Notes: generated by a model from the sequence alone, not told the origin. 64,000 bases of DNA from Longimicrobiales bacterium (GCA_965203235.1 CBDBCH010000002.1:94-64093); one strand, 5' to 3'; counted from the stretch's first letter, positions 1-64,000 are shown. Translations and numbers: made by a program.

Positions 1-2419
1 CCGCGATTTTCCGAATGAGTCAAGCGACTGGCGGGACGATTCCGGCGAACGGGGACGAGGTTCAGGTGCTCGACCGGGCTACCCGGCGAGTCCTGTTCGC
101 GGGCAACATCAGGAATCCGCGCTGGCGTGGGCTGATCTCCGATTCGTGGATACGGGTAGATGCTGCGGCGATTGGCGCGGAAGGCGTCTCCGGGACAGGC
201 TGATACCGCCAGCGGACGGGGTGCGTATCGCCAAGATGACCACCGGGCAGGCGCAGGTCGTCGCGCTGGTGGGCTTGTTTTCGGGCGAGGGATTTACGCT
301 CGACGGGACCGTTGGAGACCTTGCTCCGATTCCCAGACGATGTTCGGCTCCAGTCCGTCGAGTCGGTGCTCTCACGGTTGCTAGATACGGGTGACTTCAT
401 TTTCACTGTCTCGAACGACAAGGTGGTGCGAGTTCGGGCGCGGGGGTCTCTCCCGACTTCCGCCCTGATAGCCGGACCGGACAACGTGTCGCTCATCAGC
501 ACGGAGACTGACGCGAGCAACCACCGGACGCGCCAGTGGGTGCGACATGGATCGTCACCGGCAAGCGGACTTTCAACGGGATGGCCGCTCCCGGCGGTTT
601 CCGGTGGTGGTTTCCAGCGCGGAGGAACTGGATTTTTTCTCCGATTCCGCCACCACGACGGCGAAGAACGCTGACCGGGACCGGGGGCTTCGGTGGCGGT
701 TCGATGCGCGGGCGGCGATTCGGACTGACCTGAATGGGGGGATCGACTTCGTCGGGGGCAATGCGCTGACGGCGGCTTCCGGGACGGTCTACATGGGGGA
801 AGTCGGGTATCCGCCTACCGGGGTTGATGTGGAGGAAGCGGGCGGCGCGGGGACCCTGATGTCAATGGAGATTCCGGCTGCGCCCACCTTCCTTCCGGGG
901 TACGCGTTGGGGATTCGGCATACGGCGAGCGGTGACGTTTGGACGTTCGAGGATCAGAGGATCGTCGATAGCTACGGGGGAAACAATGTTCGCCGGGAGG
1001 CCTCGCAAGACAGGCTGCTCGGACACTATCGGGCGGATGACCAGTACCCCGGACAGGCTGTGGGTGGTTAGCGGCAGAACGGCGCGGGCGTACCATTTCA
1101 ATGGGGTTCGGGACGCGGCGCGGGACGTGACGTTCACCGGCTTGATTCACAGCATCGCAGGAATCGGGAATCGGCTCTACGCGCTGACCGGCGAGCTTTC
1201 GATTGGCGGCTCAGCTTTCCCTGTCGCTTTCGAGGTGGAAGTCCGGGACGCGAATACGAAGAACGAGATAACCCAGACGGGGGCACCGAGCTTCCTGAAC
1301 CGACCGGATGATGGCACCTTGATATGGGGACCTTGCCGTTGGGGGCGGAATCGTTTGGATGCTCCGGGGCACGACGGAAGCGGCGCGGCGGGGCGGCAAC
1401 ACTCTTGGCTGGAAGGCGGAGGCCTACGATCAGGACGACTGGACGCGGTTGACCGACCGGGACATCACCGTGAACACCCCGGAGGATACGCAGATTGCGG
1501 CTACGCGGCTCTACGTTTGGGGGAACCACCTGTACTACCGGGGGCAGAGAAACTGGCACACGGCGTACAACATGTCGACTGGCGAGAGCGAGGCTGCGCA
1601 CGTCGTTGATTCGTTCAACCTGACCCGCCCGACCATCGGCGAGGGAGAGGAACCCGTCGCGGGCAACTCCCGGCTCTGGATTCGCCCTTCATCGACTTCC
1701 GGGCAGCTTCGGGCTTGGCGGCTTGGGCGGGCGCGAGGGCAGTTCCGAAAGCCCACCACCACCGAGGCTCTGGCGATGCGCTCCCGGCTCTCGCAGGACG
1801 ACCGCTTCCGGGTCATCCTCATGGACGCCAGCGTTCCGGGCGTCTCCGCTACCCGCGCTCGCTACGAACCCGTCTCCGTGGATGTTCAGGAAATCACTTC
1901 CCTGAGCGTTGACGGTACCGACATCGAGCTTGGGGGCTCCGGGTGGCACTTCGACGCCGCCACCCAAGAGCTTGCCATCCATATCGGGAGCGTGGGAACC
2001 CCGACCACCAGTCAGCAGATAATCATCGAGTGGGTCGGGCGCGCGCTTGCGCTGGCGAGTAAGGAAGGGCTTGCGGTGGACCGGCTGACCGAGTTCGAGG
2101 GGCAGGACGCCTTGCGCTTCGACGAGCGCAGCGGGCGGCGCAAATCCTCTTGGGGCAGCACGGGGAGGTAGCCGAGCGGCTGATAGTCCGCTTCGTCTGG
2201 GGCACCCCCATCCATGTGGAGGTCGGGCAGCGGCTACAAATTGACAGTAGCTTGGCGGCGAAGTACGGTGTGAAGAACCCCACCGGCGCCGACCGTTGGC
2301 TGGTTTCCGAAGTCGTTATTACCGAGCAGGGCGATTTGATTCGCTACGAGGTTCGGTGTATCCGGGATCGGTTCCAGCAGCGGTGGGCGGATTTCTGGCG
2401 TAGCATTGCGAGGAACTGA
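1..2419 (+). pseudogene. Frameshift-disrupted copy of the 1225-aa tail protein gene, truncated at the window edge
   Basis: Fragments 15..203, 146..394, 312..674, 547..1071, 932..1609, 1359..2171 and 2150..2419, in rotating frames, reproduce consecutive stretches of the intact ORF 30379..34056(-). There are at least 6 frame changes. Confidence 0.8.
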
Positions 2420-2420
2420 C

Positions 2421-2711
2421 ATGGCGCAAACCCGATTCGTCACTCTCGAACCAGGGGTGGTCGTGGATATTGCTACGGCGGCGGGTATCGGGGATGGGCG
2501 GTACACGCTTGATAATGTCGGGGTCTACTCTGTGCGGGTCGCCTTCGTGGATTCGCTTCCGGCGAACCTGCAGGATGATTCCATAACTAGCTTTGCTCCT
2601 ATGATTCCTCCGCATGGCTACGGCAGTTCGCGGGGGTTCTCGCTGAACGGCGACCACATGCTCGTGGTGAGTGGCGAGGGTTCCACGGTGGCTATCACCG
2701 AGGACGAGTAA
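2421..2711 (+). CDS. Hypothetical tail-module protein (96 aa), intact copy
   Basis: Translation identical to 30087..30377(-). ATG at 2421 follows the upstream stop at 2417..2419. The ORF-track start at 2406 would overlap the upstream gene. Confidence 0.55.
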   Translation: MAQTRFVTLEPGVVVDIATAAGIGDGRYTLDNVGVYSVRVAFVDSLPANLQDDSITSFAPMIPPHGYGSSRGFSLNGDHMLVVSGEGSTVAITEDE

Positions 2712-5700
2712 TGGGTCTCTCTCCGGCAGGCGGGCATGGCGGATTCGCTGGCGACGCCTTCAAGATCGGCCCTTCCCCTAACCGGTTCGCGGCGGCTTCG
2801 CTGACCGCTGCCGAGGCAGCAAGGGACGCGCAGGCGGCAACGGCGGCGTGGGTTGCCCGCTACGAGGCGGACCGGCTGGCGGTCATCCTCCTCCAGGACA
2901 CGACGGCTGACCGGCTCTACGTGCAGTCGCTCGAACCGACGCTGGTTACGGGGAGCGGCAACAGCAAGGACTACTCGAACGCGTGGCTGACCCTTGCGAT
3001 TGCTCCGGGTGGCTTCACCCGGGACCAAGCCCTTGCGCTGATCGCGGATTGGGCGGAACAGGGCAATGCGACCCTGATTCCCGACACGAAGCTCGCGGCG
3101 GACATTGCGCGGGATTCGGACGTCACGGCTGCGATTGCGACTGCGGTGGCGCGGGTGCGCGGAGGAGTGGCGGCTGACCGGGACACGCTGGAGAAAGTCG
3201 CGGACGCCCTGGCGGTGGTGACGGCGCGTGGCGCGGTCATCAATGTGGAGCGGTCGGGGGACAACATCGTCGTTCACCAGCGGGATGGCTCCACTGACTC
3301 GTTGTCGGTGGCTCCGCTGACCCCGGCGATTGACCGGGCGGGCGTACTGGCCCTGATAGCGGATTGGGCGGAGGCGGGGAACACCACCCCGTTGCCGGAC
3401 TCGAAAGTCCCCGCGAGCATCGCCCGCGACAGTGAGTTGAACAATGCTGTCGCCAATGTGTTGACGGCGATCAGGGGGAATGCGCCAAGCAACCGGAACA
3501 CGCTGGAGGAGATCAACAATGCGCTGGCCGTTGTGGAGAACAGGAACCCGGTCATTGCGGTCAGTCTCTCCAGCAATGTGCTGTCCTTCCGGTTCCGGGA
3601 TGCCACGACACAAAATGTCACCCTGCCCGCTGGCGGGGGTGGCGGCACTTCGGGCTGGACCAGGCTGCCGTAGATGCGCGGGTCAGGGCGGGCGTCGCGG
3701 ATTGGGCGGAAACAGGGGATACAAGCGATGTCCCCGACACCAAGCTCTCAAGCAATATCGCTCGCACCAGTGCGATCCCGTCGATCACCGGGCTACAGGA
3801 CGCTGCGGGCGTAAGGAACACAGTCGAACCTTCCTGGCGGCGGGCAGCAATGTGACGCTGACCCGCGTGGGTGACACGCTGACCATCGCCTCTACTGGCG
3901 GCAGCGGTGGCGGCCTGACGCAGGAGCAGGTGCGTGACACCATTGCGGGCTTCATCCGTGGCGTCGGGATTTCCGTCGTTCACGATGACACCGCGAATAC
4001 GCTGACTCTGACGCGCTTGCCGCTTGAGTTCGGCGAGCAGATGATCGGGGAGAGTCTTGGTGCCTACTCGCGCACCACTTCCCAGACGCCGAACGCGAGC
4101 GAGTTCTACAGGGTGTCGGCAGTTCGATTCGGATTCGGACAAGCAATGCGGAGCACACCGAGTTGGCGAATGCGACTCACATCTTCGTCAACAAGTCTGT
4201 CTCCACATTGGCGGTGGCGCGGTTCGGGGTCAACTACAGCGACCTGACGCTGAATATCAATATCCCTGACACCAACGACCCGATAAATCTCCACTACGCC
4301 TCCACGCTGATCGGTAGACGATGGGCGGAAGCGCGTCACGCTACGACCCTTTTCCACTATCTTGGGGAATCCTCCGGCGAACCGCAACACGCTGGAGAAG
4401 ATTGCCACCGCTTTGTTGGCAGTCGAGAACAGGAACCCGGTCACGGCAGTCGCTGTTTCCGGCAACGACATCATCACGTCTAACCAGCAGGGTCAGACTA
4501 CGACTATCACCACTGGTTGGCAGGATGCGGTGGGCGTCAGGAGCGTCGTCACCGACTTCATCAAGCCCGGCACCAACGTACAGGTGGTGCGGCAGGGCGA
4601 TGAATTGACGATCAGTTCCACCACCGGTGGCAGCGGCACCGCGCCGCAGAATGAGATCATCGTGGTGACTGGCGACAGGACTTTCACTGTCGCTGAATCG
4701 ACACAGCTTCACCGCAAGATCATACTGACGCACAGCGACAGTGACATCACGATCACGCTGTCCGAGCCGACCGGCAGTACCGACTTGGGCACCTTGGTGT
4801 TCAACATGGGTTCCGGTGCTGTGCGTATCACCGCCACGCCCACTTCCCGGATCGATGGCCCCGATTGCCCTGAACAAGCAGGGCGACAGCGCAGCCATCA
4901 ATTGGGATGACAGCACTCGCAAGTGGGAGCCGCGACAGCTTGGCGGCATCACCCACATTGACAGCGACTACGTGTCGCTTACCAATGAAGACACCGCCCG
5001 TCTTTCGGGGAGGATACTGATATGTACGGCGACTTCGGATATTCGAGTCTCACTCCGGTCTGGCGTTGGTGCTCTGTTAGTGATAAACGCTTCGCCCAAC
5101 AACTCCAACGTATTGTTGACGACGAGCGCGAGCAACTTGCGTTCGAGGGAACTTACAAGCACGACGAGCGGCCAGACGATGTTCGGTCGGTGGACGGGAA
5201 GCGTGTGGGAGTTCCAGGGCGATTGGGAGACTGTCGCTGCAATGGGCGAGGGAAGGATCGAGTTCCCTGGTTCCAGATGCGAAGATTGCGGCGAGCATTG
5301 CTCGTGACTCCGAAGTCAACACGGCTGTCGCCACTGCGCTGACGACTGTTCGGGGTGGGGCACCGGCGAGTCGGGGACACGTTGAAGGAAATCAACGATG
5401 CGGTGGTCACGCTGGAGTCGCGGAACCCGATCATCAGTGCCTCGATTACGAACCGGATCATCACCTTCACCCGGCAAGACGGACGACGCAGACTGTCACC
5501 GTTCCGGCGCGCTCCGGGCAGACCACAGGCCTGATTGAATCGGAAGTCCGGGCACTGGTGGAGCAGTATGCCGAAGTCGGGCAGACGGGGACTATCCCTA
5601 TCACCCGCTTCGGGGACGGGGTTATCACCGAGGGCGAAGTTGGCGCAGGCGGTGAAGGACAAGCTCGATGAGAGCGACCATGTTTTCATCTCCGCTTCGC

Positions 5701-6514
5701 GTACCTTCACCGCTTCCGAGGCGCAAGAGCTTCACCGCAAGAGTCTCTGGTACATCGGGAGCGCAACCGGGACTATCACTCTGCCCGCCCTGACCGGGCA
5801 CTCTTCCCGCGTGGAAGTGGCTCTGTTGGCGAACACGTCCTCACACAGCGTGGGCATGCAGGTCAATGCGCAGCAGACTACCGGACCGCAACTGGCGCAG
5901 GCTCTGGTAGATGGCGACATCGGGTTGCTTGTTTGGGACGGGGCGCAGTGGTCTATCAACAGCACCGGCTTCGCTTTCACCTTCCGGGAAGCGACCATAT
6001 CCGGCAAGCAGATCACGCTGATTCGCCACAACCGGAACTTTCCGAACCGGGTGCTTGACATCCCCATCCCCCGACATCGCTTCGGAGGCGGAAGCCGTGG
6101 CCGGAACTGATAATGTAGACTACATGACTGCACTTCGCGTCAAGGAGGCGATTGACCATGCACAAGGCACCCGCTCCGGGGCGCATGACTTCTTTTTTGG
6201 TGGTCTGGCGGCTGATCCAACTAGCAGCCTGGACCTTTCTACTCTGCAAAGCACTCGCGTCAGTACATCGGGTAATCAGGAAGTTGTCGTCAATCGCACC
6301 TGGAGGCGGTGCCGACCGACATTTTTACGTCATCCAGCGCGTCACCGACGGCGACATCATTGGATGGACTTTGGACGGCGGCACAAGCACCGGATGGACA
6401 AAAGGAACAACTACATTGACCATCGGGGGCGTCCAGTACGAGTGGTACAAGAGCGAGTACACGTGGCGTAGCTCTGTGACGCAGGGACTCCGGTTGGGGA
6501 TTACGAGGGCGTAA
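2711..6514 (+). pseudogene. Frameshift-disrupted copy of the 1266-aa tail fibre gene
   Basis: Fragments 2711..3673, 3480..4247, 4163..4483, 4362..4910, 4741..5307, 5535..6110, 6055..6471 and 6152..6514 tile the intact ORF 26287..30087(-). The indels I compared are 1-nt changes in short runs: cttcgggctgg at ~3652 vs cttcggggctgg, and gtcgaacctt at ~3827 vs gtcgaaacctt. At least one substitution is also present (LLVIN vs LIVIN). Confidence 0.85.
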
Positions 6515-9130
6515 TGAGCTTCCGAATCGAGAAGGGGATCACAGTTCTCCACGGGGTACGGCTATCGTTCCCGGCACGTCCACCAGTCCTATCGGCGTGG
6601 ATGTTGGGCTTGGCGATTGGAACCTCGTCGTTGAGCCGGGCACCTACTACCCGACCGGAGAGATGGACCACAGGCCGTTCGACGGCACCAAGTGGTCTAT
6701 GCGGGTGGCGGTGCTCGCTGGCGGAAGCCCGCCTGACATTGAGCAACACGCCCAACAGGGTGATCGCGGCAAGAGCCGCGTGAGGACGCTCCGGGATTTG
6801 GAGCCAGTGGGTCGGTTGGGAAGACACGCTGCCTCGTTCGTGCCGAATGGCAACGCGGACAGGGTTGCCATGCAGAACATCCAAACGCAGCAAAGGCACA
6901 TCCACGAGGTCGAACTGACTGTCACTTCGGGGATCGTTGCAACTACTCCGAATGTTTACGGATGGTCTATCGCGCCTTCCACCGCTACGCAGACATTGCC
7001 GCAGGGCGGAGACCTTGCGAGGGTGGATGGCGGAGAACTTTCTGACGTTCCGAACCACCTTTTGGTGGCTATGTACTCCACTTCGGCTGCTACGCCCGTC
7101 AGTAAGTTCAGGTTCAAGAGCTTCGTCAATACCTTGATTCGGGTGAAGATAGGAGACACCGAGTACGCCCTGACGCGAACTGTCAACAACAGCACTGTCG
7201 CCTCATGGGGAGACTTCCAGTTTGACGAGTATGAGATTTCGAGTTCGGAAACGAACCGAGACCCCTTGGGGTTCAGTGCTACTGGTGTCACGAAGAACGG
7301 CATCCAGTTCTTCCAGTCTCGTCACCGCCCGCTCTATACCGCCACGTTTGATGAAGAGCGGTCTTTCGATCTCTATGGATTGCAGGCACTGACGGGGCAC
7401 ATCGCACAGCGCGTTGAGATTGAATCTTTGCAGGGCACCAACAAGGTGCTTGAGACTGCCTACAGTCTCGCCGACGAGCGGACGATTCACACATTCCGGC
7501 ATCATCCCCGCGTGTCTGTCACGGGTATGACCAGCGCGATCATCGATCTGGAGAACCAACACTATCCACTCCGATTGGTGCGTGGAGACACTCGCATCTT
7601 CGGCGCGGATGAAAGTCCGGGTGAGGAGGACTTGGGTCGCAGATCACAGACCGCCGATGAGTTGGTCGATTTTACGCTCCAAAACTACGGGATTACCACC
7701 GAGACAGTGAAGGACGGACTGTTGGTGATGGAGTTCGGGACGCTCTCCCGTGTCATCTTCAACATGAACTCCCGGCGCATGGAGACGGCTGCTGCTGGCG
7801 ATCTTGAGATTCCTCGGCGTAGGACAACGAATCACTGTCCGGTACTTCCCGACCGGAAGCGCGATGGATGTCGTTGACGGCAACTTCGTGGCGGAGAACA
7901 CGTCAGGCGGGGCTAGCGCGGCCAAGCAGTACCGCATCTACGGCAGTCCAACAGCTATCCAAGCTCTGAAAGACCACCATGTGGCGTATGTCGGGAGAGG
8001 CGACCTTTCCATCCTCCCGACTCTAAAGACTGTTGGGCCTATGGGCGCGATTCATAGCCTGAATGTGGATTCGATGGGGGCTGTGAGTACCGATACAGCG
8101 AACTCGGCGTACAGGTACGTTGACCTGACGATCAATGCGGGGACGGCTCCCCGTCCGAGCAGAGGCAGCGCGGTGGTGCTTGGCATCCCGAAGGCTCTGA
8201 TTCGCACCCTGACAGCAACCCCGACCATGTGAGGACGCCGCTTGAGTGGACGGAAGACCTTTCGGGAATCGGGATTGATCCTCTTAGTCCTTACCCCGGA
8301 ACGATTTATCTGCCCTGGCCGGAGGAAGCGAATGTTCTTCGGTTGACTATGAACACGCCGCAGATCAGTGGCACTTCCGGCACAAAGATGCGGATTCAGT
8401 ACCTGACCACCGGGACGCCCACGCGATTCGATTGGGTGCTGTCGCGCACCAGTGATGGCCCTATCGAGTTCACCAGCGGCGCGAGCCATACCTACGAGTT
8501 CCATAAGGATTCGTTCCGCTTCGATGACAAGTTGAAGCTGCGCATGGTCGCTGTGGATGCCACTGGCGACCCAAGCGGTGCCGTGAACTTCGGAAGTGGG
8601 GACACTCTCAAGGCGAAGCTGGAGTATCTCAATCTCCCCAACATCGCAGACGAGGACGCACCCATTCATCGGGAGTTCGCAGCGTGTCATCAAGACCGCC
8701 AAGACGAACAACATCGCCGGGACGACGATGACTAACATCTCCTTCGGGAGAGCGATAGAAATCGCCCGGATCGATGAGATTGCGATGCGCGTGAACCCGG
8801 ATTCGGATCAAGGCGAGACGCAAGGCGCGGGCGAGCGGATTATCCGGCTGACTCGTGCGGACATCGATATTGGAGACCTGTTCGGGGCGGGGAGCTTCAC
8901 CCTGCCTACCAGCACGACCGCGAAGATGGCTGTGCTACTTTTCCTGGGGCTTGCGGACAACCTTCGCGAACCTATGGCGGGACCGAGTCGCGCGTTCATA
9001 GCGGGCGTGTCGAGCGATCCTGTTATGATTCTTTCTATGGTTGAAGATGGTGTCTACGCAACTGGCGTTGGCATCGCCTGCTTCAACGTCGACCACAACA
9101 TTCTTGCGGGTCAAGTGAGGTTTTATCTGA
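6514..9130 (+). pseudogene. Frameshift-disrupted copy of the 871-aa tail protein gene
   Basis: Fragments 6514..6783, 6597..7877, 7804..8232, 8229..8735 and 8596..9426 tile the intact ORF 23672..26287(-). One example is an extra g at ~8655 (gacgaggacgc vs gacgagacgc). Confidence 0.85.
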
Positions 9131-9131
9131 T

Positions 9132-10099: not shown

Positions 10100-10333
10100 C
10101 CGACTTGATTGTCGAGATCGCCGTCCTGTTCGTCTCTCTCGGCGCCTCCGTCTGGTACATGATGGCTGAGGTCAAGAAAATGGTGGAGGATCAGGGCAAG
10201 CGAATGGAGCAGGGCTTTCGGGATGTCGTTCAAGCGATTCGGGGACATGGAACGTTCTGTCTCTGAGGCGCATAACCGCCAGCAAGAGGATTTGACGCAC
10301 CTTCGGGCGCGGATCAATGGAGGGGGCAAGTGA
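10096..10333 (+). pseudogene. Copy of the 78-aa membrane protein gene with a 1-nt insertion
   Basis: An extra g at ~10243 (attcggggacatgg vs attcgggacatgg in 22472..22708) truncates the reading frame at 10266. Confidence 0.7.
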
Positions 10334-53891: not shown

Positions 53892-53897
53892 CTCGGC

Positions 53898-54422: not shown

Positions 54423-54756
54423 CATCAAGGCACAGCAGAGGCTCTGGCGCAAGCAGCCCCGGTACTGGTACGTCATCCATGCGATGGCGAAAACACCAGC
54501 CGGCCACTTCCGCGAGATCGCAGAAAGCGACGAGTGGAAGCGGGATGCGAAGCATGTGTTCTACGCGATGGGCGCGACCCGCCCGGAAAACTACTCGGTG
54601 CCCGACTGGGCCAAGCCGTTCGCCGAATTGACGGCTCCCGACCCGGAAGCTGTGAAGCGGCGCGAGCAGGAGACGCACGCAAAGCTACTGGCGATGCTGG
54701 AAAACCCCGCAGACGACCGAAACCGCGCCCCGGTCAAACAGCAGAGCCTTTTCTGA
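54412..54756 (+). CDS. Hypothetical Trp-rich protein (114 aa)
   Basis: Mirror of 49011..49355. Confidence 0.55.
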   Translation: MPVDIKAQQRLWRKQPRYWYVIHAMAKTPAGHFREIAESDEWKRDAKHVFYAMGATRPENYSVPDWAKPFAELTAPDPEAVKRREQETHAKLLAMLENPADDRNRAPVKQQSLF

Positions 54757-55016
54757 TGAGCTATCGCAACCGCCCGAATCTCCCGCAGAACCAGCCTGAT
54801 CTGCACTCGCCTCCCGAAGGCTACGAGGACGAGCAACCGGCCGTCGGTCTCCGACTTGACGCTGCGACACAACTCGAGCGCGACTTGCGGCGGGTCCGGG
54901 ACGTACTGGCGCGATGGGCTGTTGATGCCGAGGTCGTGACGAGCGTGCACAGGAGCGTGGAGCGTCTCGTCGACGAGATGCGGCGGGCGATCTCCGAGCA
55001 CAGGGAGACGCGGTGA
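54756..55016 (+). CDS. Hypothetical protein (86 aa)
   Basis: Mirror of 48751..49011. Confidence 0.5.
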   Translation: MSYRNRPNLPQNQPDLHSPPEGYEDEQPAVGLRLDAATQLERDLRRVRDVLARWAVDAEVVTSVHRSVERLVDEMRRAISEHRETR

Positions 55017-55318
55017 ACCAGTTCCTCGCGGATTTGCGGCCCGTGAACGTCGCCCACTGGCGCGTCATCTGGCGGCGCCACCCCCACATGTGGGCGATGA
55101 TCTACCATCTCGGGCGCTTCGGCGGCGACCCCTACAAGACGCTGCTGGAGTCCCCGGAATGGCGGGAGGACTCCGAGGCGCTCTATCCGATCATCGGGAA
55201 TTGCGAGCGGCCCCGCGACCGGAAGCACTGGACGGCCAAGTTCCACGGTCTGTATCCCCACCGCGACCCGCGCATCGAGGAGATGGTCGGGCACGAGATT
55301 ATGGAGAAAGACAAGTGA
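55013..55318 (+). CDS. Hypothetical Trp-rich protein (101 aa)
   Basis: Mirror of 48449..48754. Confidence 0.55.
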   Translation: MNQFLADLRPVNVAHWRVIWRRHPHMWAMIYHLGRFGGDPYKTLLESPEWREDSEALYPIIGNCERPRDRKHWTAKFHGLYPHRDPRIEEMVGHEIMEKDK

Positions 55319-55638
55319 GAACCATCAAGAGGAAGGTCGTCTACCGCTACGTTTCAGTGCATCCCCATGACAAGAAAGTCGAAGAAGTTGATAGCTGCGC
55401 TTGCGGCGCGGTGTTGGGACACAGCAGTTTCGCAAAGGCAGGCGAATGCGTGGTAGTCGCAAATGAAACAACCGGGATACAGCATCAAGTCTCGGTGATA
55501 GTCCGTACCGCAATCTACACGCTCCCCATAGAGCAATGCACCGTAGATGAGAGGAAAGCAGTTCTCGCCGCTATGGACGAATACTGCGCCCGGCGAGAAG
55601 CGAAAAATGCAAGGCGCAGCAAGCAGAAAAAGGGATGA
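55315..55638 (+). CDS. Hypothetical protein (107 aa)
   Basis: Mirror of 48129..48452. Confidence 0.5.
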   Translation: MRTIKRKVVYRYVSVHPHDKKVEEVDSCACGAVLGHSSFAKAGECVVVANETTGIQHQVSVIVRTAIYTLPIEQCTVDERKAVLAAMDEYCARREAKNARRSKQKKG

Positions 55639-55641
55639 GCC

Positions 55642-55977
55642 CTAACTCGCCATCTCCACCAGCGATTTGATGTTCCGAATGACCCTGTTCGGTTCCCGCT
55701 CGATCCAGGTGGTCGGCACTCGGTACACCATCCAACCGCCCAAGACGGCGGCTTCATACTTTTCGCAATCCTTCAAGAACCCGCCGATCCGCTGATGTCT
55801 CGAACCGAACCCCGGAGAAATCCCCTCGACTTCGACCGCGAGCAGCAGGTCAGGCCAGGCGAAGTCGAACCGCCACCGGCGAGGCCGGGCGAAAACCAGT
55901 TCCCGCTCCGGCTTCGGAATTCCCGCACGGTCAATCAGAATCGCCAGACGTTCTTCGGCTGCGCTGCGCTTTCTCAT
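55642..55977 (-). CDS. PD-(D/E)XK nuclease (DUF559/Vsr-like)
   Basis: Mirror of 47790..48125. Confidence 0.6.
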   Translation of the reverse strand: MRKRSAAEERLAILIDRAGIPKPERELVFARPRRWRFDFAWPDLLLAVEVEGISPGFGSRHQRIGGFLKDCEKYEAAVLGGWMVYRVPTTWIEREPNRVIRNIKSLVEMAS

Positions 55978-55994
55978 GGGGATAGCATATCACG

Positions 55995-56561
55995 GTGAAC
56001 GAAATCTACAATCCCATTCAGGAACCGCCGGAAAGGAACCCGGTCGATGAATGGCTGAAGCGGGTCAAAGAAGATGCAGACCGGCGAATGCGGGAGGCGT
56101 TGCTGCGCAAGCACATAGATGATGTCCTGCCTCGACTTGATATCCACGAAAGCGAAGATGATCAGAGCGAAGAAGATATGAAATTCCGAACGATGAACCG
56201 AGAGGCCAAGCGGGAAAGACAAATGGAACGGAATCGGAAAAACCCAAGACTGCGACCGTTCCAGTGTAGAGACTGCGAGATTCAAGTTGCCGACGACTGG
56301 ATATACGACCCCAGGCGCGGTTCGCTCCGGTGCCGGGACTGCCAACTCGGGAAGGCGCGGGCGAAGAGGCGCGGGGAAGCGTGGGTTCCGCACACCCGAC
56401 ACCTGTGCGGGGATTGCGGAGATCGGATTCTGAAAGACTGGTGGGAAGCACCCCGCCGGGCGCGCCGCAAGAAGTGCCGGGGCTGTTTCCTGGAATACCA
56501 GCGGAAGAAAAACGAGTCGCGAAGGCGGTTTCAGCTTGAAGGCACTTCGGAGAAGTGCTAG
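55995..56561 (+). CDS. Cys-rich multi-zinc-ribbon protein (188 aa)
   Basis: Mirror of 47206..47772. Confidence 0.55.
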   Translation: MNEIYNPIQEPPERNPVDEWLKRVKEDADRRMREALLRKHIDDVLPRLDIHESEDDQSEEDMKFRTMNREAKRERQMERNRKNPRLRPFQCRDCEIQVADDWIYDPRRGSLRCRDCQLGKARAKRRGEAWVPHTRHLCGDCGDRILKDWWEAPRRARRKKCRGCFLEYQRKKNESRRRFQLEGTSEKC

Positions 56562-56792
56562 GATGATCTTGCCCTCGGTCGGCGAGCGACCCGTAGCCCA
56601 CTGTTCTGTTTTCCCAAATTCGGAACACTCCTTTATGGGCACCGCACTCCGTGCTGGTCGTTCTGGTCCGCGACGACCCGGCCGAGGGCTACACAGACCC
56701 CCTGCGCGGCGAGCGGTTTTTTCCTGCTTTCTCCCGCAAAGACCCGCGTAGGGGCATCCCATGACGCTCGTCCCGACGCAGAGGAAGCTGCT

Positions 56793-57836
56793 ATGAGTCA
56801 CGAACTTCCGGTCAAGACCCTCGTCCCCGACGACCCCGACACCCAATACCTGACCGAGCTTGCCTGCTCGAAGATGCGAGAGTATCGCTCGCTTCGGGAT
56901 CAAGGCTCCCGCAAGGCCTCGGAAGCTCGCCGGGAGTACAACGCGGCCATGATTCGGCTTTCCCGAAAGGTGTTCGGTCAAACGACCGACTACGCGGACG
57001 AGGCCGAAAAGCTGGCGCAACTGGAGCTCGCGGCGCACACCGACACCGGCGAGGAGGATCGGGTTCGGATAGTCCGGCAAGCTCTTGGCGAGTTCGCGCC
57101 TACCCTGCTTCCGGCGCAGGTTCAGTTCCCCGACCCCGAAATCCGCCTGGCGAACGACCGAACCGGCTCTCTCCTGTCAATCGGGGAACCACTTGCTATC
57201 ACAGGTTTGCCAAAGGCGGGCAAGAGCACTTTCTCGCTCCAGCTTGCGGTCAAGGCGACCGGCGGCAAGCCCGGCTCCCGCGTCAACCACATGGGAATTT
57301 CCGTCCGGGTATCCCCCTGGATTCTCGCTTCCTACGAGGATTCCCCGTTCCGAATGCGCCAGCGAGCTTCGCAACTCGGCTTCACGGGCTCTGACGCCCT
57401 CTTTTTCGTCCCGATGAAGGCGCGCCCCCTGTGGCAGACCCGCGACACCGGAACCGGCTCCGGTCCTAGTCCTTGGTTCGCAAGATTCTGGGATGAGGTG
57501 GGGCTGGCGGCGCGGGACGCCAGACGCAAGCTCGGCATCACCGAGGGCGGCGTTCTCCTGCTCGACCCCCTGGCGGCAGCGTTCGACGCTGGCGAAACTG
57601 CGTCTCCCGCCCGGCAGTTCATCCAGAGCATGAACGAAGAAGCGAAAACGAAGGGACTCGCGTTCTGCGCGGTGGCGCATTCCGGCAAGGGCGGCGACCG
57701 CGGCGTATCAGGGTCAGTTCAATGGAATGCGACCTTCCGGGCGATTCTTCACATCGAAAGGGACGACGACAACAACGCTTTCCTCTCGGTGCCGATGGCG
57801 AACTACAGCGCGCCTGTAGACACCATCAAGATTTAG
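56793..57836 (+). CDS. RecA-like ATPase, paralog 2
   Basis: Mirror of 45931..46974. Confidence 0.7.
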   Translation: MSHELPVKTLVPDDPDTQYLTELACSKMREYRSLRDQGSRKASEARREYNAAMIRLSRKVFGQTTDYADEAEKLAQLELAAHTDTGEEDRVRIVRQALGEFAPTLLPAQVQFPDPEIRLANDRTGSLLSIGEPLAITGLPKAGKSTFSLQLAVKATGGKPGSRVNHMGISVRVSPWILASYEDSPFRMRQRASQLGFTGSDALFFVPMKARPLWQTRDTGTGSGPSPWFARFWDEVGLAARDARRKLGITEGGVLLLDPLAAAFDAGETASPARQFIQSMNEEAKTKGLAFCAVAHSGKGGDRGVSGSVQWNATFRAILHIERDDDNNAFLSVPMANYSAPVDTIKI

Positions 57837-59089
57837 AAGTCGACGTCGTCTGTTTCGGCTTCTTCTGGTTCTTCCGCTTTCGCTTTTTTCTGTTTCGGCT
57901 TGCCTGCGCCCTTGACGAGGGCGGCGATCTCATGGCGACTGTACTCCCTTGCGGGGCTGGCGGCCTCCAATCCCGCCCATCTACCATCGCTCCCGGTGCG
58001 AGGCACCAGCACGTGTCCGATACCCGACCGGGCGTAGTTCGCCTTTGCGATGACCAGCAAGCGATCTTCCCCTAGCTCCGGGTTGGAGTGTTCATGCGCT
58101 GGCGGCAGTGGTCGCAGGTGCAGGACGGCGCGGGCGCCATCCACCCATTGGGCGGACCCGGAGACTGTTCCAGCGACATCAGCTTCCCTGCGGCTTGACT
58201 TCGTATCATGGGCGATCAAGAGGACGGCGCACGCGTTCTTGACTGCTTGACCGGTCAGGGCGGCCAGGAAAGCGCGTACCCCGGCCGCTTCGTTCGCATT
58301 CCCGGCGAAAGCGACGCTCGCTGGGTCGATGACCACGAGCTTCGCACCTACCTTTTTCACTTCCGACCAGAGAATGCTCCAGTCCTCCGTCTCCGAATAG
58401 ACCCGGGCGAAGTTATCTTCCGGCCCCCATAGCGGTCCGCAGTTTGCGCTCATCAAGTTCACGTGCGACCAATCCGAAGGGGGTCCGTACCATTCCATGC
58501 GGCGGGCGATGATTTGGGGCGGGTCCTCGTAGTTCAGGAGGGCTACCGGGCCCTGCCGGACGCTCAGTCCTATCGCAGTCCCGAAGGGGTCAATTCCTTT
58601 CGAGTGGGCGGGCCCGGCGGCGTGAAGCAAGGCGAGCAAGCTCGTGGATTTCCCGGTCTCCCCCGGACCGCTCATTATCCCGACCATCCCCTCACCGAGG
58701 AAAACTCCCTGGCGGTGGGCGGGCTTGATTACAGCTGGCGGCTCTGGCAGTCCGAAGGGTACTAGCGTCAGATGCGGGCGGTGCTCGGTGAGAATCCGCG
58801 CTGCGGCGGCATCATTTTCGGCATCGGCGGCGCGACGCTCCCGATCCTCGAGTTCGTCCTCGTCGTCTATCCGGGGGCGGAGGCGGCGGCGGTATTCCTT
58901 GCGGGTCGCCTCCAGCGCCGCTCGTGCTTCGGGGTCCTGGTCTTTCGGGGCTAGCTCGTAGATGTAGTGGCGCAGCCAGAACGCGCGCCACGCAAGCTGG
59001 CGGACCCCAAGAAACGCGACATCTTGCGCAATCAGTTCCTTGTAAGGCGGGTAGGAAGCTCCCCCGGACTCGCCATTCTGTTTTCCCAC
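57833..59089 (-). CDS. RecA-like ATPase, paralog 1
   Basis: Mirror of 44678..45934. Confidence 0.7.
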   Translation of the reverse strand: MGKQNGESGGASYPPYKELIAQDVAFLGVRQLAWRAFWLRHYIYELAPKDQDPEARAALEATRKEYRRRLRPRIDDEDELEDRERRAADAENDAAAARILTEHRPHLTLVPFGLPEPPAVIKPAHRQGVFLGEGMVGIMSGPGETGKSTSLLALLHAAGPAHSKGIDPFGTAIGLSVRQGPVALLNYEDPPQIIARRMEWYGPPSDWSHVNLMSANCGPLWGPEDNFARVYSETEDWSILWSEVKKVGAKLVVIDPASVAFAGNANEAAGVRAFLAALTGQAVKNACAVLLIAHDTKSSRREADVAGTVSGSAQWVDGARAVLHLRPLPPAHEHSNPELGEDRLLVIAKANYARSGIGHVLVPRTGSDGRWAGLEAASPAREYSRHEIAALVKGAGKPKQKKAKAEEPEEAETDDVDF

Positions 59090-59148
59090 GGTGGGGATTC
59101 TACCCGGAACCTTGCTACCTGTATCAAGGTGGGATACGCTCCAGCACC

Positions 59149-60591
59149 ATGGCGATCCAGAGCGTGCACCCCCAGTGGACGGAGCGACGCGACCAATGGC
59201 GGCGGTGCCGGGACTGCTTCGAGGGCGTGGACGCGGTGCGCGGTCGCGGGATCGAGTACCTGCCCCCCCTCTCCGAGGGCACCGACTACCGGGCGTACCT
59301 GGAGCGGGCGCACTTCTACCCCGCGTTCTCCCGCACCGTGGAGGCTCTGATCGGTGTGGTCTTGCGGCATCCGCCCGAAGTCTCCGTCCCCGCCGTCATG
59401 GAGAAAGACATGGAGGACCTTGACCTGTTCGGGAGCGGGATCAACCGGATCGTCGAACAGGTGATTCGGGAAATCCTGATCTCCGGGCGGGTCATTCTCT
59501 TGCAGGATGTCTACGGTCAGCGGATTTACTGGCGCGTGCATCAAGCGGTTGACCTGCGCTACTGGTGGGGAGGACCGACCCCCGTAATGGGCGGCGGGCT
59601 GTCCGAGGCGATCGTCGAGGAACGCGGCTGGCGACCGGCTAGCGAGGACGAAATCCCTGAGATTCAAGAATCCTCTACCCTGATTCGCTACCGGTTCGGG
59701 GACACCCCGGATTCGTCTATCGGCGAACCGGGCTTCGGCGCGTTGCGGCAGGAATGGCGGGACGACGCCTCTGGGTTCCAGCTTGCCGCCGAGTTCCCGC
59801 TGCGGCTCCCTTCCGGGCAACCGCTAGACGTCCTCCCGGTTCATGTCGGGGATTTGCCGAGCGAAACGGCGATTCCCTACTCGCCACCCAAGCCGACCAT
59901 GCTGGATGTGGCGGATTTGTCGCTGAGCTACTTCCGAACTTCCGCCGATTTGGAGCATGCGCTCCACTTCGTCGCGCTGCCGACTCCGTGGATTTCGGCT
60001 CCGCAACCGCCCAAGAACGCGAAGATCGGAAGCTCCGAAGTCTGGTACTTGGGTTCCACCGGTTCCGCCGGAATCCTTGAAGTACAAGGTCCTGGTATGG
60101 CTGCGCTGGAGACCGCGCTTGGCCGCAAGGCTCGCCAGCTTGCCGGGGCGGGGGCGCGGGTAGTCACCGAACCCGTGCGCCACGCCGAGACCGCCACCGC
60201 TGCGCAAATCAAGGCGAGCGGCGACCGAACCCTGCTCCATTGCGTAGTTGACGAGGTGGAACGGGTGGTTGGCAATGCGCTTCGGCTCCACCAGCGGTGG
60301 ATGGGCTACGCCGGGGAGGAGCCGAGCATCACCCTGAACCGCGACTGGATTGACACCCGGTTGTCGCCTGCGGACATCAGCGGGCTGGTTCAACTGGTTC
60401 AAGACCGGCTCATCTCGCCGGAAGCCTTTGCCAATGCGTTGGTTCGCGGCGAGTGGCTCCGCCCGGCGGAACGCTACGTGCCTGAAATCAAGGAACCCGC
60501 GCCCATGCCTCCCGCGCTTGCGGCTGCGCAGGGGCAGGCTCCCGAACCCGGAGAAAGCGAGGAAGGGGACGGCGAGGACGACGAGTCCTGA
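59149..60591 (+). CDS. Portal protein
   Basis: Mirror of 43176..44618. Confidence 0.7.
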   Translation: MAIQSVHPQWTERRDQWRRCRDCFEGVDAVRGRGIEYLPPLSEGTDYRAYLERAHFYPAFSRTVEALIGVVLRHPPEVSVPAVMEKDMEDLDLFGSGINRIVEQVIREILISGRVILLQDVYGQRIYWRVHQAVDLRYWWGGPTPVMGGGLSEAIVEERGWRPASEDEIPEIQESSTLIRYRFGDTPDSSIGEPGFGALRQEWRDDASGFQLAAEFPLRLPSGQPLDVLPVHVGDLPSETAIPYSPPKPTMLDVADLSLSYFRTSADLEHALHFVALPTPWISAPQPPKNAKIGSSEVWYLGSTGSAGILEVQGPGMAALETALGRKARQLAGAGARVVTEPVRHAETATAAQIKASGDRTLLHCVVDEVERVVGNALRLHQRWMGYAGEEPSITLNRDWIDTRLSPADISGLVQLVQDRLISPEAFANALVRGEWLRPAERYVPEIKEPAPMPPALAAAQGQAPEPGESEEGDGEDDES

Positions 60592-61433
60592 TGCGGCGAC
60601 CCCTCTCCGGTCCCTACTACTACGGCGGCAAATCTGTGAACGGCAAGTCAGGCACAGGTCGGTGGATCACCGAGCTACTGCCCTACCGGACGCGCTACAT
60701 CGAACCGTTTTCGGGGATGCTTGGGGTGCTGCTCCAACGGCGACCTTCCCCCGTCGAGATAGTCAACGACCTTGACGGACATGTGGTGAACTGGTGGTTG
60801 GCAGTTCGGGATGACCCGGAGCGGCTGGCGCAGCACCTTGAACTTACGCCGCACTCGCGCAAGCACTATGAGTTGGCGCATCGGACCATGGCGGCGACGG
60901 CGGGAAAGGAACCGGACGGGAATGTCGAGCGGGCGACGGCGATTTGGACGGTGCTGCTTGGCGCGGCGGTGGGCGGGTCGGCGCGGGCGGCGAGCTTCGG
61001 GTTGAACTTCAAGCACCACCCCCACACGGGCAGTTGGCGGGACGGCTCGCGGGTTTTCCGACTGGCGCAGCGGCTGCGCAAGGTTCAACTGGATTCCCGA
61101 CCGGCGGAGACCATCCTGAACCGGGTCTCCGAATACGAGGACGCCGTGGTCTACTGCGATCCTCCCTACCGGACTGCAGACTGTCGGGCATACAAAGACA
61201 ACGGGCAGACGCTTGATGTGGAAGCCATATCCGAGGCTCTGATAGCGCAACGCGGCGCGGTGGCGATTTCCGGCTACGGCGAGGAGTGGAATCATCTTGG
61301 CTGGAATCGGCTGGAGCTTCAAGCCCAATGCTCCAGCTTCGGGGAGCACGGCAAGCGGAAAGACACGCGGCGCACGGAGGTGCTGTGGTTGAACTTTGAT
61401 CCGGGACCGATACAGAGAAAACTTGCGTTCTGA
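60591..61433 (+). CDS. DNA N6-adenine methyltransferase (Dam-like)
   Basis: Mirror of 42334..43176. DPPY motif. Confidence 0.85.
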   Translation: MRRPLSGPYYYGGKSVNGKSGTGRWITELLPYRTRYIEPFSGMLGVLLQRRPSPVEIVNDLDGHVVNWWLAVRDDPERLAQHLELTPHSRKHYELAHRTMAATAGKEPDGNVERATAIWTVLLGAAVGGSARAASFGLNFKHHPHTGSWRDGSRVFRLAQRLRKVQLDSRPAETILNRVSEYEDAVVYCDPPYRTADCRAYKDNGQTLDVEAISEALIAQRGAVAISGYGEEWNHLGWNRLELQAQCSSFGEHGKRKDTRRTEVLWLNFDPGPIQRKLAF

Positions 61434-61453
61434 ATATGTGCTAGAGTGCGCGT

Positions 61454-62143
61454 ATGGCACTTCAGTTTTCGCTCGACGAGCAAGCCCACGCGCAACTCCC
61501 GGAGGCTCTCCGGGACCATTATGTCAAGCAGGACGATGGCTCGTATCTGCTTCACACGGAAGGGGATAACCCCGAAGTGAAGCAGTTGCGCGGCAAGGTC
61601 GACGAGTTCAGACAGAACAACATCTCGTTGGAAAAGCGGATGGCGGAGGCCAAGCGGTCCGGGAACCCGGCTGAAAACACAGCCTTGGCGGAGCAAGTCA
61701 ACAAGCTCCGGGAGCAAATGGAGGCTCTGGAGAGCGAGAAAAAGGCTCTGGAGACCAAGCAGATTCAGGCTGACTTCCGGTCTACGCTAAGCAAGGCGGT
61801 TCACGGGATGGGGCTGACCGAAGGCGCGCTGCCCGACTTGGAGCGGCGGGCGCAGCTTGATGGGTGGACGATGCAGGAAGGCAACGCGGTGCGCCTTGAC
61901 CCGCAAGGCGAGCAAGTGCGGCGCGGTTCGCTTCCCGAAACGCTAGGCGCGTACCTGAACGATGCGAAGTTCGGAGACGCCAAGCACCTTTTCAGGGGTC
62001 CCTCCGGTGGCGGGACTGACAGGGCGGTGCCCTTTGGCAAGAATGGCGCGAAGATAGAGGTTGACGCTTCGGACGACTTCGTGCTGTCGAACCTGGATGA
62101 CATTGCTTCCGGCAAAGTCGTCCTCCAGACCACCGTTCAGTAA
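61454..62143 (+). CDS. Scaffolding protein candidate
   Basis: Mirror of 41624..42313. Confidence 0.5.
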   Translation: MALQFSLDEQAHAQLPEALRDHYVKQDDGSYLLHTEGDNPEVKQLRGKVDEFRQNNISLEKRMAEAKRSGNPAENTALAEQVNKLREQMEALESEKKALETKQIQADFRSTLSKAVHGMGLTEGALPDLERRAQLDGWTMQEGNAVRLDPQGEQVRRGSLPETLGAYLNDAKFGDAKHLFRGPSGGGTDRAVPFGKNGAKIEVDASDDFVLSNLDDIASGKVVLQTTVQ

Positions 62144-62164
62144 GGGCGGTAAGGAGGGAGCGTC

Positions 62165-63316
62165 GTGGCTCTCAATGATTTTAAGCTCACCATCTTGGCG
62201 CAGGCTCTTGCTGCGCTTCGGAAGCGGGCTACCTTTGCGCGGGCGGCGTACCGCGACCTTTCGGCTCGTCTGAACGCTGCGGCGCAGGGCGAAACCCTGC
62301 AATTCAACTACATCACGAAGCCGACTGTCGGGGATGTCCCGACTCTCGCCACTTCGCTTGGCGGCGCCGTCGCGGAACCGCAGACCACCACCCGGACCCT
62401 GACCCTCGACCACTGGAAGCGGGTCTATTGGGATGTCAACGATCGGGATTCCTACTCCGTTGGAGGCGAGGGATTTACCGCGATTGGGGCGACCTACGGG
62501 GCGGCTCTGGCTGACCAGATCGAGGCTGACATGTTCCAGCATGTCGCGGAAAATGTCGCGGAAGGCGCGATCAACCACGGGACTACCGCGCAGGGGACCG
62601 CCTTCAACAACACCAACGCGACTCGTACCGCGCTTCGCTTGCTGGCTTCGCGGGACGCGGACATGGGGCAGTTCTTCATGTTCGTCAGTCCTACCGATCA
62701 GGAGGACTTCCTCGGTGCGTCGGACTTCACCCGGGCGGACTTCCGGGGACAGGTTCCCGCTACGGAGATTCAGACTACCGGCGACCTTGGCACTTCGTTC
62801 GGATTCCGGTTCATTGTCTCGAACAACATTCCCTCTGTCACGCGGGGAGCGAACTCGGGCGCGGTCAATCGCGCTGGCGGCGTCACCGCAGGCGCGACTG
62901 TGATCCCGGTGGATGCTGCGGGCGCGTCTGGCATCAACCCCGGCGAGGTCGTGCTGTTCGGAGGCCAACTCTACGCGGTCAAGGCTGGAATCTCCGGGGT
63001 TGCGGGCAACATCACTATTGACCGTCCGCTGGCGGCTAATGTGGCCGATAACACCGCACTGGGGCGGCGGTTCACCCACCGTCCGGCTTGGGCGATGAAC
63101 CCCAATGCTTTCGCTTTGGCCATGCGGCCTACCGTCGCTCCCCGGCAGCAGGGCAACGGGAGTATTCGGTCTCTGGTTGACCCCGGAACCGGGTTCTCCC
63201 TTACGCTGGAGGAAACCCGGATTCAGAGCGGTACTCGGTACACTCTCTCGGCTCTCTACGGTTTCACCGTCGTCCGCCCGGAGATGATCGTCCGTATCGC
63301 CACCCCGGTGGTCTGA
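62165..63316 (+). CDS. Major capsid protein
   Basis: Mirror of 40451..41602. Confidence 0.7.
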   Translation: MALNDFKLTILAQALAALRKRATFARAAYRDLSARLNAAAQGETLQFNYITKPTVGDVPTLATSLGGAVAEPQTTTRTLTLDHWKRVYWDVNDRDSYSVGGEGFTAIGATYGAALADQIEADMFQHVAENVAEGAINHGTTAQGTAFNNTNATRTALRLLASRDADMGQFFMFVSPTDQEDFLGASDFTRADFRGQVPATEIQTTGDLGTSFGFRFIVSNNIPSVTRGANSGAVNRAGGVTAGATVIPVDAAGASGINPGEVVLFGGQLYAVKAGISGVAGNITIDRPLAANVADNTALGRRFTHRPAWAMNPNAFALAMRPTVAPRQQGNGSIRSLVDPGTGFSLTLEETRIQSGTRYTLSALYGFTVVRPEMIVRIATPVV

Positions 63317-63330
63317 TACGGGAGCGTCTG

Positions 63331-63843
63331 ATGGCGCTTACTCTCGCCACCGACACCCTCTGCGTGGTGTCGGTGGCAGACGCCTATCTCGCCGGGCACC
63401 CGTATGGGGCTGGTTGGGCGTCCATTGACGAAGGTTCGGCTGATGCCACGCTCGCAAGGAAGGAGGCTCTGTTGCGTCTTGCGAGTGAGGTGCTGAGTTC
63501 GGGGATATGGTGGAACGGTCGTGCCTCGCACATGGAGCAACCGCTCGCTTGGCCGAGGGCGTGGATGCCTGCGGTTTTCGGTCATGGCGGCTACATCAGT
63601 TCAACCGAGATTCCTACCCGGATTCAACAGATGACCGCACTTCTTGGGCTTGCGCTCCACCGGAAAGAGCGGACGAAGGATTTGCCGTTGAAGGATTTTG
63701 CGATTCGTCAGACGGGCAGTTCGCAGTTCGCTGGCGGGGCGATTCGCCGGGTTATCCCGGAAGCGGTGACGGACATGCTCCCGGAGGCTTGGGGGACAGT
63801 GGCGGGAAGCGGCAACCTGAACTATCCGCTTCGGAGGGTTTGA
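63331..63843 (+). CDS. Head-tail connector (gp6-like adaptor) candidate
   Basis: Mirror of 39924..40436. Confidence 0.5.
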   Translation: MALTLATDTLCVVSVADAYLAGHPYGAGWASIDEGSADATLARKEALLRLASEVLSSGIWWNGRASHMEQPLAWPRAWMPAVFGHGGYISSTEIPTRIQQMTALLGLALHRKERTKDLPLKDFAIRQTGSSQFAGGAIRRVIPEAVTDMLPEAWGTVAGSGNLNYPLRRV

Positions 63844-63845
63844 TC

Positions 63846-64000
63846 GTGCCTGCCGACTGGCTCGACGACACGGTGGAGGCTGTCCGGGAGACGCTGGATG
63901 ACCTTGAACTGCTGGAGGATGTCGTCCATTACCACGGCGGCTCTACACTGGATGAGGAAACCGGTCGTCCTACGAGCTACGATTCCCGCAAATTGAAGGC
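63846..64000 (+). CDS. Putative head-closure/neck protein, truncated by the window end
   Basis: Mirror of the 5' part of 39550..39921. GTG start at 63846. Confidence 0.45.
   Translation, partial: MPADWLDDTVEAVRETLDDLELLEDVVHYHGGSTLDEETGRPTSYDSRKLK

Follow-up and report, generated by a model that had tools for sequence, protein, structure and literature searches.

Mirror-image copies, terminal inverted repeats and a mismatched apex palindrome make poxvirus/rudivirus-style telomeres plausible on a tailed-phage genome

The DNA analysed here (the window) is a stretch of 64,000 nucleotides from Longimicrobiales bacterium (GCA_965203235.1, CBDBCH010000002.1:94-64093). It consists of an inverted partial copy, a full unit and a second inverted partial copy, the unit being the 35.48-kb genome of a tailed phage. 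The two apexes at which the sequence turns back on its own complement coincide with terminal inverted repeats (TIRs) of the unit, and one of them is an imperfect palindrome with isolated mismatches. These ends make telomeres of the kind found in poxviruses and rudiviruses plausible on a tailed phage. The elements that form the symmetry and the ends are, in order along the window:

1-16402, minus strand: copy 1, a partial, inverted copy covering the unit's left 16.4 kb, with an error-prone consensus and an A-type terminal repeat at its end
16289-16517, no strand: left apex, an imperfect palindrome of 229 nt that may be a hairpin telomere or the junction of replicated telomeres
16403-51883, plus strand: the single complete unit, a 35.48-kb tailed-phage genome
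16404-17317, plus strand: left TIR with a B-type tip
51018-51844, minus strand: right TIR, B-type, matching 16491-17317 at 100% and lacking the outermost 77 nt and the loop
51842-51925, no strand: right apex, 84 nt, not self-complementary
51845-64000, minus strand: copy 3, a partial, inverted copy covering the unit's right 12.1 kb and having the A-type terminal repeat first

Self-BLAST of the window against its own reverse complement gave 99.70% identity for 1-32798 and 99.81% for 39767-64000, and the symmetry is therefore far above chance expectation. On the left, copy 1 (1-16402) and the matching part of the unit (copy 2, 16404-32805) differ at 48 sites. Sixteen of these are substitutions that all fall within 16413-16517, no more than 115 nt from the centre at 16403; another 29 are single-base indels, nearly all in short homopolymer runs, and three further substitutions are scattered. 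Outside the apex, 31 of the 32 differences lie more than 5 kb away from it, and the sum of paired coordinates (x+y), 32806 at the apex, has fallen to 32799 by the far end. The indels shift reading frames in copy 1 (for example, 188 aa vs 50 aa; 78 aa vs 56 aa) and leave those of copy 2 intact, and copy 1 is therefore taken to be the low-quality, low-coverage end of a long-read assembly. On the right, 39767-51841 mirrors 51926-64000 base for base (x+y=103767) except for two substitutions, at 51818 and 51828. The number of reads supporting the contig seems to vary strongly along its length: homopolymer indels between the left arms (1-11000 vs 21800-32800) cluster at distances of more than 5 kb from the apex, but 12 kb of the right arms are identical. 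The source contig measures 67,717 bp, compared with 70.96 kb for two units, and nowhere within it does right-unique sequence join left-unique sequence.

An earlier note on this DNA had described two mirror duplications around one complete, phage-like unit at 16403-51883. Our self-comparison recovered both duplications and the same bounds, and portal, capsid and tail genes were recognised in the unit. The note had also called the left half an exact reverse complement, with identical translations of open reading frames (ORFs) on opposite strands; the symmetry stands, the exactness does not (48 differing sites and a drifting coordinate sum), and not all translations agree, those of copy 1 being frameshifted. 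Its right-hand mirror was placed at 51883/51884, for which the coordinate sum of 103767 was reproduced; the real junction is at 51844/51845, and the 84-nt centre is not self-complementary. The TIRs had been missed.

These repeats, of about 0.9 kb, extend over 16414-17317 and 51018-51844, and 16491-17317 is the reverse complement of 51018-51844 without a single difference (100%). Because the unit has TIRs, both apexes are made of the same sequence. From the tip inwards each repeat contains a hairpin arm, iterons, a G+C-rich spacer, operator-like repeats, a promoter-like site, a ribosome-binding site and the start of a terminal gene. The iterons form an array of GATGA/TCATC motifs phased at 11 bp that covers about 16430-16810 (~400 bp). 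The operator-like repeats of the left TIR are located at 17194-17235; in each TIR they comprise two 21-nt direct repeats (GGCGAAAAAA..GCGATTTG) and a small inverted repeat, just upstream of the promoter. The predicted promoter is a near-consensus, sigma-70-like site (TTGACA-18-TAGGAT, 17249-17278), and the whole operator/promoter stretch 17194-17278 is mirrored near 51057-51141. The identity stops three codons (MRK) into the inward-reading terminal genes, the left of which has its ATG at 17308.

The left apex has an odd-length centre at 16403 with a TGT loop (16402-16404) closed by an 8-bp tip stem. Sixteen isolated 1x1 mismatches are located 10-114 nt from the centre, and beyond 115 nt the arms continue without further substitution for several kilobases. 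Folded as single-stranded DNA, the apex forms one long hairpin (-127 kcal/mol, z = -21). Two GATGATAG boxes are perfectly paired islands at distances 40-47 and 91-98; mismatches at 39 and 48 bracket the first box, and one at 90 precedes the second. Like-with-like oppositions (A.A, T.T, G.G, C.C) make up 11/16 of the mismatches, against one third expected (binomial p = 0.004). Five CTAG sites occur in the 229 nt, each opposite CAAG or CTTG in the other arm; in the unit as a whole this tetranucleotide is depleted about four-fold (32 observed vs 122 expected).

The two arms of the apex define two haplotypes. Type A, at 15489-16393 in copy 1, is the reverse complement of 51845-52749 in copy 3 at 100% over 905 nt, and for type B the two ends of copy 2 agree at 100% over 827 nt. 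Each haplotype is joined to both left-unique and right-unique sequence, as a mismatched hairpin at both ends requires. From its sequence pattern the A/B difference is judged to be real and not read error, because outside the 115 nt the arms differ almost only by single-base indels of the homopolymer type that is typical of read error. Miscalls caused by base modification were considered as a source of the differences and rejected; the differences are confined to 115 nt, haplotype-clean and not limited to one motif. That the 16 mismatches are clustered, haplotype-clean and patterned indicates that the apex is natural sequence, either as one strand of an incompletely paired hairpin or as a duplex imperfect palindrome. 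The SMRTbell adapter, with up to 3 mismatches allowed, was found nowhere in the window.

Each apex is the inverted complement of the other. From 51845 onwards the right apex is the outer 81 nt of an A-type arm in single copy, and overall it corresponds to the reverse complement of the left apex minus 97 nt (the equivalent of 16394-16490). Its arms follow in the order inverse to the left, that is, the reverse complement (rc) of B and then A, and the absent 97 nt are the loop plus the outer 77 nt of B. The ends of this deletion do not form a clean microhomology. The deletion may represent a real variant telomere or a consensus error in a mixture of flip and flop forms.

All plausible ORFs of the unit were searched against Pfam, PHROGs and NCBIfam. 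With a portal, a major capsid protein and a tail/tape-measure module, the unit is an HK97-type tailed phage of the Caudoviricetes; a tail chaperone gene was also recognised. Its G+C content is 62%. The features of the unit, by position, are:

19590-22708, minus strand: lysis region, with an SLT transglycosylase (19590-20120) and small proteins, membrane-bound or coiled-coil in look
23672-26287, 26287-30087 and 30379-34056, minus strand: three giant tail or host-recognition ORFs
34056-36263, minus strand: tape measure
40451-41602, minus strand: major capsid protein (phrog_283, 3e-35)
41624-42313, minus strand: head scaffolding protein (phrog_206)
42334-43176, minus strand: D12-class N6-adenine DNA methyltransferase, between the portal and scaffold genes
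43176-44618, minus strand: portal protein (DUF4055; phrog_145, 7e-75)
44678-45934, plus strand: AAA_25 (RepA/DnaB-like) ATPase, divergent from the portal gene
45931-46974, minus strand: second AAA_25 ATPase, a paralogue with 30% identity, convergent with the first
47206-47772, 49345-49869 and 49876-50427, minus strand: three basic multi-CxxC zinc-ribbon proteins
47790-48125, plus strand: stand-alone Vsr/DUF559-fold (EDxHD-type) endonuclease of 111 aa, the sole nuclease recognised in the genome

Large terminase (TerL) had no match in any plausible ORF, whether in these three collections or in a sequence search of the PDB, and tblastn of the Xp15 TerL against the unit gave a best E of at least 0.59. 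The structural module is thus complete (portal, scaffold, capsid, tail, lysis) yet TerL was not detected; the portal gene is the first of its operon, beside a divergent gene. Pfam, PHROGs and NCBIfam likewise revealed no protelomerase of the TelN, TelK or ResT family and no integrase or tyrosine-recombinase domain in any plausible ORF. Among the same ORFs we found no DNA polymerase, protein-priming polymerase or terminal protein, and recognised no RusA, Holliday-junction resolvase, RuvC-like resolvase, HUH nickase, ligase or topoisomerase. Scans of the unit for tRNAs and Rfam families returned no matches.

The two AAA_25 ATPases are most simply replication helicases. They carry similar N-terminal extensions of about 110-125 aa. 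Their homologues were located in a circular plasmid, in a 71-kb contig flagged as circular that has an integrase, and in two contigs bearing an integrase or CRISPR-Cas, none of which offered a second case of such ends; homologues elsewhere are followed by a partner gene of 470-500 aa, which is absent from the unit. The three zinc-ribbon proteins could be candidate binders of the iterons or boxes. They belong to a cluster of small minus-strand genes (47206-50427) that also includes the paralogues 48449-48754 and 49011-49355. Some proteins of the lysis region look holin-like or spanin-like when their translations are read. The unit encodes the D12-class adenine methyltransferase; GATC occurs in it at 138 sites and is not depleted. 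GC skew was uninformative as an origin marker, being dominated by gene orientation, and gene calling by GC3 was not discriminating at 62% G+C.

The family of the 111-aa nuclease counts 8,272 representatives at E <= 0.001 and is entered in PHROGs as phrog_503 with function listed as unknown; 15/49 aligned members match Pfam DUF559. A profile of the family gave weak matches in the PDB to 3r3p and 3hrl. A single-sequence AlphaFold model of the protein was too poor and was replaced by an alignment-based model (AF2), which reached a pLDDT (predicted local distance difference test) of 94. In Foldseek comparisons the latter aligned with I-Bth0305I (3r3p, a Vsr-like homing endonuclease) at a template-modelling (TM) score of 0.73-0.84, with 3hrl (DUF559) at 0.70-0.82 and with Vsr at 0.53. 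The family alignment shows no variation at aspartate 38, glutamate 49, histidine 61, aspartate 70 and lysine 73. The predicted presence of a mismatch-nicking fold in a genome with mismatched termini is a suggestive hint toward a role at the telomeres; the family is so widespread that this is too weak to tie the protein to them.

The phage lineage is very isolated. Phage and plasmid collections contained no near-identical DNA, the portal is 30% or less identical to those of cultured phages, and among 5.8 billion clustered proteins the capsid has two homologues, one of which is the window's own protein. Against plasmids the capsid gave distant Leptospira matches alone, and capsid-based scans of GTDB genomes and IMG/VR had no matches; nor did an exact 33-mer from the TIR in IMG/VR and JGI metagenomes. 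The closest relatives fetched, L001, L004 and L005, share the structural gene order at 39-45% identity in portal or capsid. In all three the portal is first in its operon, beside a divergent RusA gene and without an adjacent terminase; the unit has the same layout but lacks RusA. A more distant relative, L006, has the usual terminase-portal pair. No long inverted repeat, palindrome or fold-back like that of the unit was found in the fetched stretches of the relatives. The contig end of L005 (1-250) is non-coding and contains a perfect inverted repeat of 18 nt as well as GGTGGACCAACC repeats that run in either direction; it resembles a subterminal iteron array, with no visible fold-back, and is not informative. 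In L004, a 97-kb relative, a PEPCK_ATP (phosphoenolpyruvate carboxykinase) gene at 5435-7012 occurs amid five DUF6197 genes in tandem, 3 kb upstream of the portal; this gene may be of host origin or an auxiliary phage gene.

We favour the view, at a probability of roughly 0.55, that the window represents a linear tailed-phage genome with flip-flop hairpin telomeres of the poxvirus/rudivirus style, read and assembled around its ends. Both apexes are located exactly at the outer tips of the 0.9-kb TIR. The unit would be the complete linear double-stranded DNA genome of a novel tailed phage, and with both ends covalently closed, as we infer, the molecule would topologically be a 'dumbbell', a single unbroken strand of about 71 kb. 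On reaching an end, long reads would pass round the hairpin and continue on the complementary strand, and an assembler would unroll the dumbbell into an inverted copy, the unit and a second inverted copy. Copies 1 and 3 are, in such an assembly, two pieces of one complementary strand. The dumbbell has a circumference of 70.96 kb and the contig a length of 67.7 kb, so that one incomplete lap suffices and a concatemer is unnecessary; even with the missing 3.7 kb added, the window does not complete a lap. Past the apex, ordinary interior reads would be placed in either orientation by an overlap-layout assembler using every read a single time, and such behaviour would explain the thin, error-prone far end of copy 1.

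Two routes could regenerate ends of this kind. The replicated junction might be extruded and cut as a cruciform by a structure-specific nuclease and joined by a ligase, in the manner of poxviruses and rudiviruses, or the end might be nicked and unfolded, as in parvoviruses. Either route would give flip and flop isomers: in cruciform cutting and in nick-and-unfold each strand keeps its own fold, and mismatches are therefore preserved and flip/flop forms generated. We tentatively picture, at somewhat less than an even chance, a tailed phage with mismatch-studded flip-flop hairpins on 0.9-kb TIRs that regenerates its ends without a protelomerase, perhaps with the Vsr-fold nuclease and host enzymes, and packages closed, unit-length DNA without a recognisable large terminase.

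The anatomy of the ends is that of poxviruses, African swine fever virus (ASFV), chloroviruses and rudiviruses in having identical inverted repeats at both ends of the unit. Adjoining these is an incompletely paired hairpin sequence, represented on the left by the apex with its 16 1x1 mismatches and on the right by the same arms minus 97 nt. The closest described anatomy is that of Kaumoebavirus LCC10, in which a 102-bp flip/flop hairpin with incomplete pairing lies next to a TIR of 1032 bp (PMC7909422). As in the nucleocytoplasmic large DNA viruses (NCLDV; vaccinia, ASFV, chloroviruses, Kaumoebavirus), a putative incompletely paired terminal hairpin abuts a TIR of roughly 1 kb, the two ends are inverted complements, as flip/flop forms would be, and repeat arrays are located beside the tip. 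Mismatches in the vaccinia hairpin are essential for packaging and not for resolution (PMC8956199). The unit differs from these viruses in being a 35-kb, 62% G+C, HK97-type tailed bacteriophage with a portal and a tape measure, in having mostly like-with-like 1x1 mismatches where they have A+T-rich extrahelical loops, and in having no recognised gene for a RuvC-like resolvase, ligase, topoisomerase or DNA polymerase.

Other hairpin-ended systems share some of these properties. Rudiviruses have covalently closed ends and head-to-head/tail-to-tail intermediates. The rudiviruses SIRV1 and SIRV2 resemble the unit in their linear genomes of 32-35 kb with long inverted terminal repeats (PMC5062984); unlike it, they are rod-shaped archaeal viruses of about 25% G+C with an HUH Rep, an Hjc-type resolvase and an unrelated virion module. 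The tailed phages N15, PY54 and phiKO2 show that linear hairpin-ended DNA is possible in this group and that palindromic junctions arise when such ends replicate. However, they use a protelomerase on a short perfect dyad, have no long TIRs, carry cos-ended DNA in the virion, permuted circularly with respect to the linear plasmid, and package it by a terminase, whereas the unit has 0.9-kb TIRs and mismatched arms, and neither protelomerase nor TerL was detected in it. In long-read assemblies of Borrelia, both contig ends carry inverse duplications ('wrap-around') where there are hairpin telomeres (10.1101/2025.07.18.665644), produced, as proposed here, by reads traversing the hairpin. The Borrelia palindromes are near-perfect and made by ResT, and their wrap-arounds are trimmed as end extensions; that of the unit is larger and covers nearly the whole of a second genome copy.

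Several observations weigh against hairpin telomeres. To our knowledge, mismatched hairpin telomeres have not been reported for any tailed phage, and the prior is correspondingly low. No independent relative with the same ends was found in the fetched stretches of the relatives or in the sequence collections, and no Holliday-junction resolvase, HUH nickase or ligase was identified among the ORFs; the single recognised nuclease is a member of a very large Vsr/DUF559-fold family. At the right apex, 97 nt of the expected structure are missing, and no clean hairpin fold is obtained. At low coverage, one fold-back read per apex could already produce the contig. Finally, the tips are arranged as B...B' on one strand and A...A' on the other, which has a probability of 1/2 if flip and flop are random and of 1 if the contig arose by self-primed fold-back at an internal palindrome.

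This last point bears on the main rival explanation, which we regard as unlikely, though it has to be taken seriously: a circular or head-to-tail genome with one near-perfect internal palindrome of 1.8 kb, composed of the right TIR, the imperfect 229-nt core and the left TIR, which could serve as an origin or as a divergent early control region. Single strands bearing the palindrome would snap back and prime their own synthesis, during whole-genome amplification, library repair or in vivo template switching, and the assembler would have followed the products. Such self-priming predicts the exact arrangement seen, with left-unique sequence flanking rc(A)-loop-B and right-unique sequence flanking rc(B)-A, and the match amounts to a 2:1 likelihood ratio in its favour over random flip/flop. 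Palindromic long reads are a known artefact of whole-genome amplification (PMC6218980), 11-bp iterons and divergent promoters lie on either side of the core, which would suit an origin or control region, and since copy 1 beyond about 5 kb is low-coverage sequence, reads spanning the apex may be few. On the other hand, the contig contains no right-unique-to-left-unique junction, although normal reads should outnumber chimeras. A single junction would hardly give two versions of the apex, one complete on the left and one 97 nt shorter on the right. In a bacterial virus, 800 bp of perfectly identical inverted repeat surrounding a core of 229 nt would be both highly unusual and unstable, and a conventionally packaged phage should encode a TerL, which was not detected.

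We consider it improbable that the contig records a true intracellular head-to-head/tail-to-tail replicative concatemer, or a circular inverted dimer, of a hairpin-ended genome. Rudiviruses and poxviruses make such intermediates (PMC5062984), and their sequence would be identical to that of a monomer read round both hairpins; a circular head-to-head dimer formed by replication would be read in the same way. Nothing in the contig needs more than one lap, however, with 67.7 kb present of 70.96 kb. This explanation involves the same biological system as hairpin telomeres on a monomer, from which it is inseparable by sequence.

A pure sequencing artefact at open ends, in which free or protein-capped TIR ends are read from a strand into its complement (a missed SMRTbell adapter or a nanopore template-complement read), is very improbable. 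Fixed physical ends would put the chimeras at a constant position, and in the absence of a competing path at a true end one read would be enough. However, the strands of a duplex are exact complements and would yield rc(A)-A and rc(B)-B, not rc(A)-loop-B with 16 mismatches. Fold-back chimeric long reads do resemble the window in that a sequence is followed by its reverse complement (PMC6218980), but their junctions normally fall at arbitrary positions, consist of perfect complements or contain adapter sequence, whereas the apexes of the unit are located at the TIR tip and include an organised palindrome. The 16 clustered mismatches, the lack of a SMRTbell adapter in the window and the position of the apexes at the TIR tips thus do not fit a missed-adapter or template-complement chimera. 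A protein cap is disfavoured by the failure to find a protein-priming polymerase or terminal protein, and the unit differs from protein-primed TIR genomes (phi29, PRD1, Streptomyces-type), which have a family-B polymerase and open, 5'-capped ends, in that no polymerase was found and the contig reads through both ends.

Least probable of all is a telomere phage of the N15 type, in which a protelomerase cuts a telRL-like site into perfectly paired hairpins: this is the sole hairpin-end system described so far in tailed phages (PMC12624138) and the fold-back topology fits it, but none of the plausible ORFs gave a match to a protelomerase or tyrosine-recombinase domain, the centre is of odd length (TGT loop), and the 16 mismatches between the arms mean that the ends cannot come from an enzyme whose products are always perfectly paired and which, by joining the complementary strands of each half-site, would erase mismatches in one generation. 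Even jointly, an artefact at open ends and an N15-type system remain improbable.

The earlier note had proposed the topology of hairpin-ended linear DNA and had likened it to poxvirus/ASFV concatemers and to the N15-type telRL. Its inference about topology was correct, and the TIRs, the imperfect apex palindrome, the arm haplotypes and the lack of a SMRTbell adapter add biological support to it. The head-to-head/tail-to-tail layout is upheld, whereas the concatemer itself is not required by a contig of 67,717 bp, shorter than 70.96 kb. The poxvirus/ASFV comparison fits, with a TIR and an incompletely paired hairpin; the analogy to N15 is abandoned, as no protelomerase was detected and mismatched arms cannot persist under protelomerase resolution.

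Hairpin telomeres on this phage, if real, would raise the questions of what enzyme carries out junction resolution, how SbcCD and mismatch repair are kept from acting on mismatched hairpins, and how a portal motor packages a closed, unit-length genome without a detectable terminase. For long-read metagenomes, palindromic 'double' contigs should not be dropped automatically as chimeras, and natural hairpin ends can be recognised by an apex that is imperfect, structured and located on a TIR. Until now, the N15-like protelomerase has been the only known hairpin system in tailed phages. If our interpretation is true, the solution to end replication used by NCLDV and rudiviruses, an imperfect flip-flop hairpin on a long TIR, would also exist in tailed bacteriophages.

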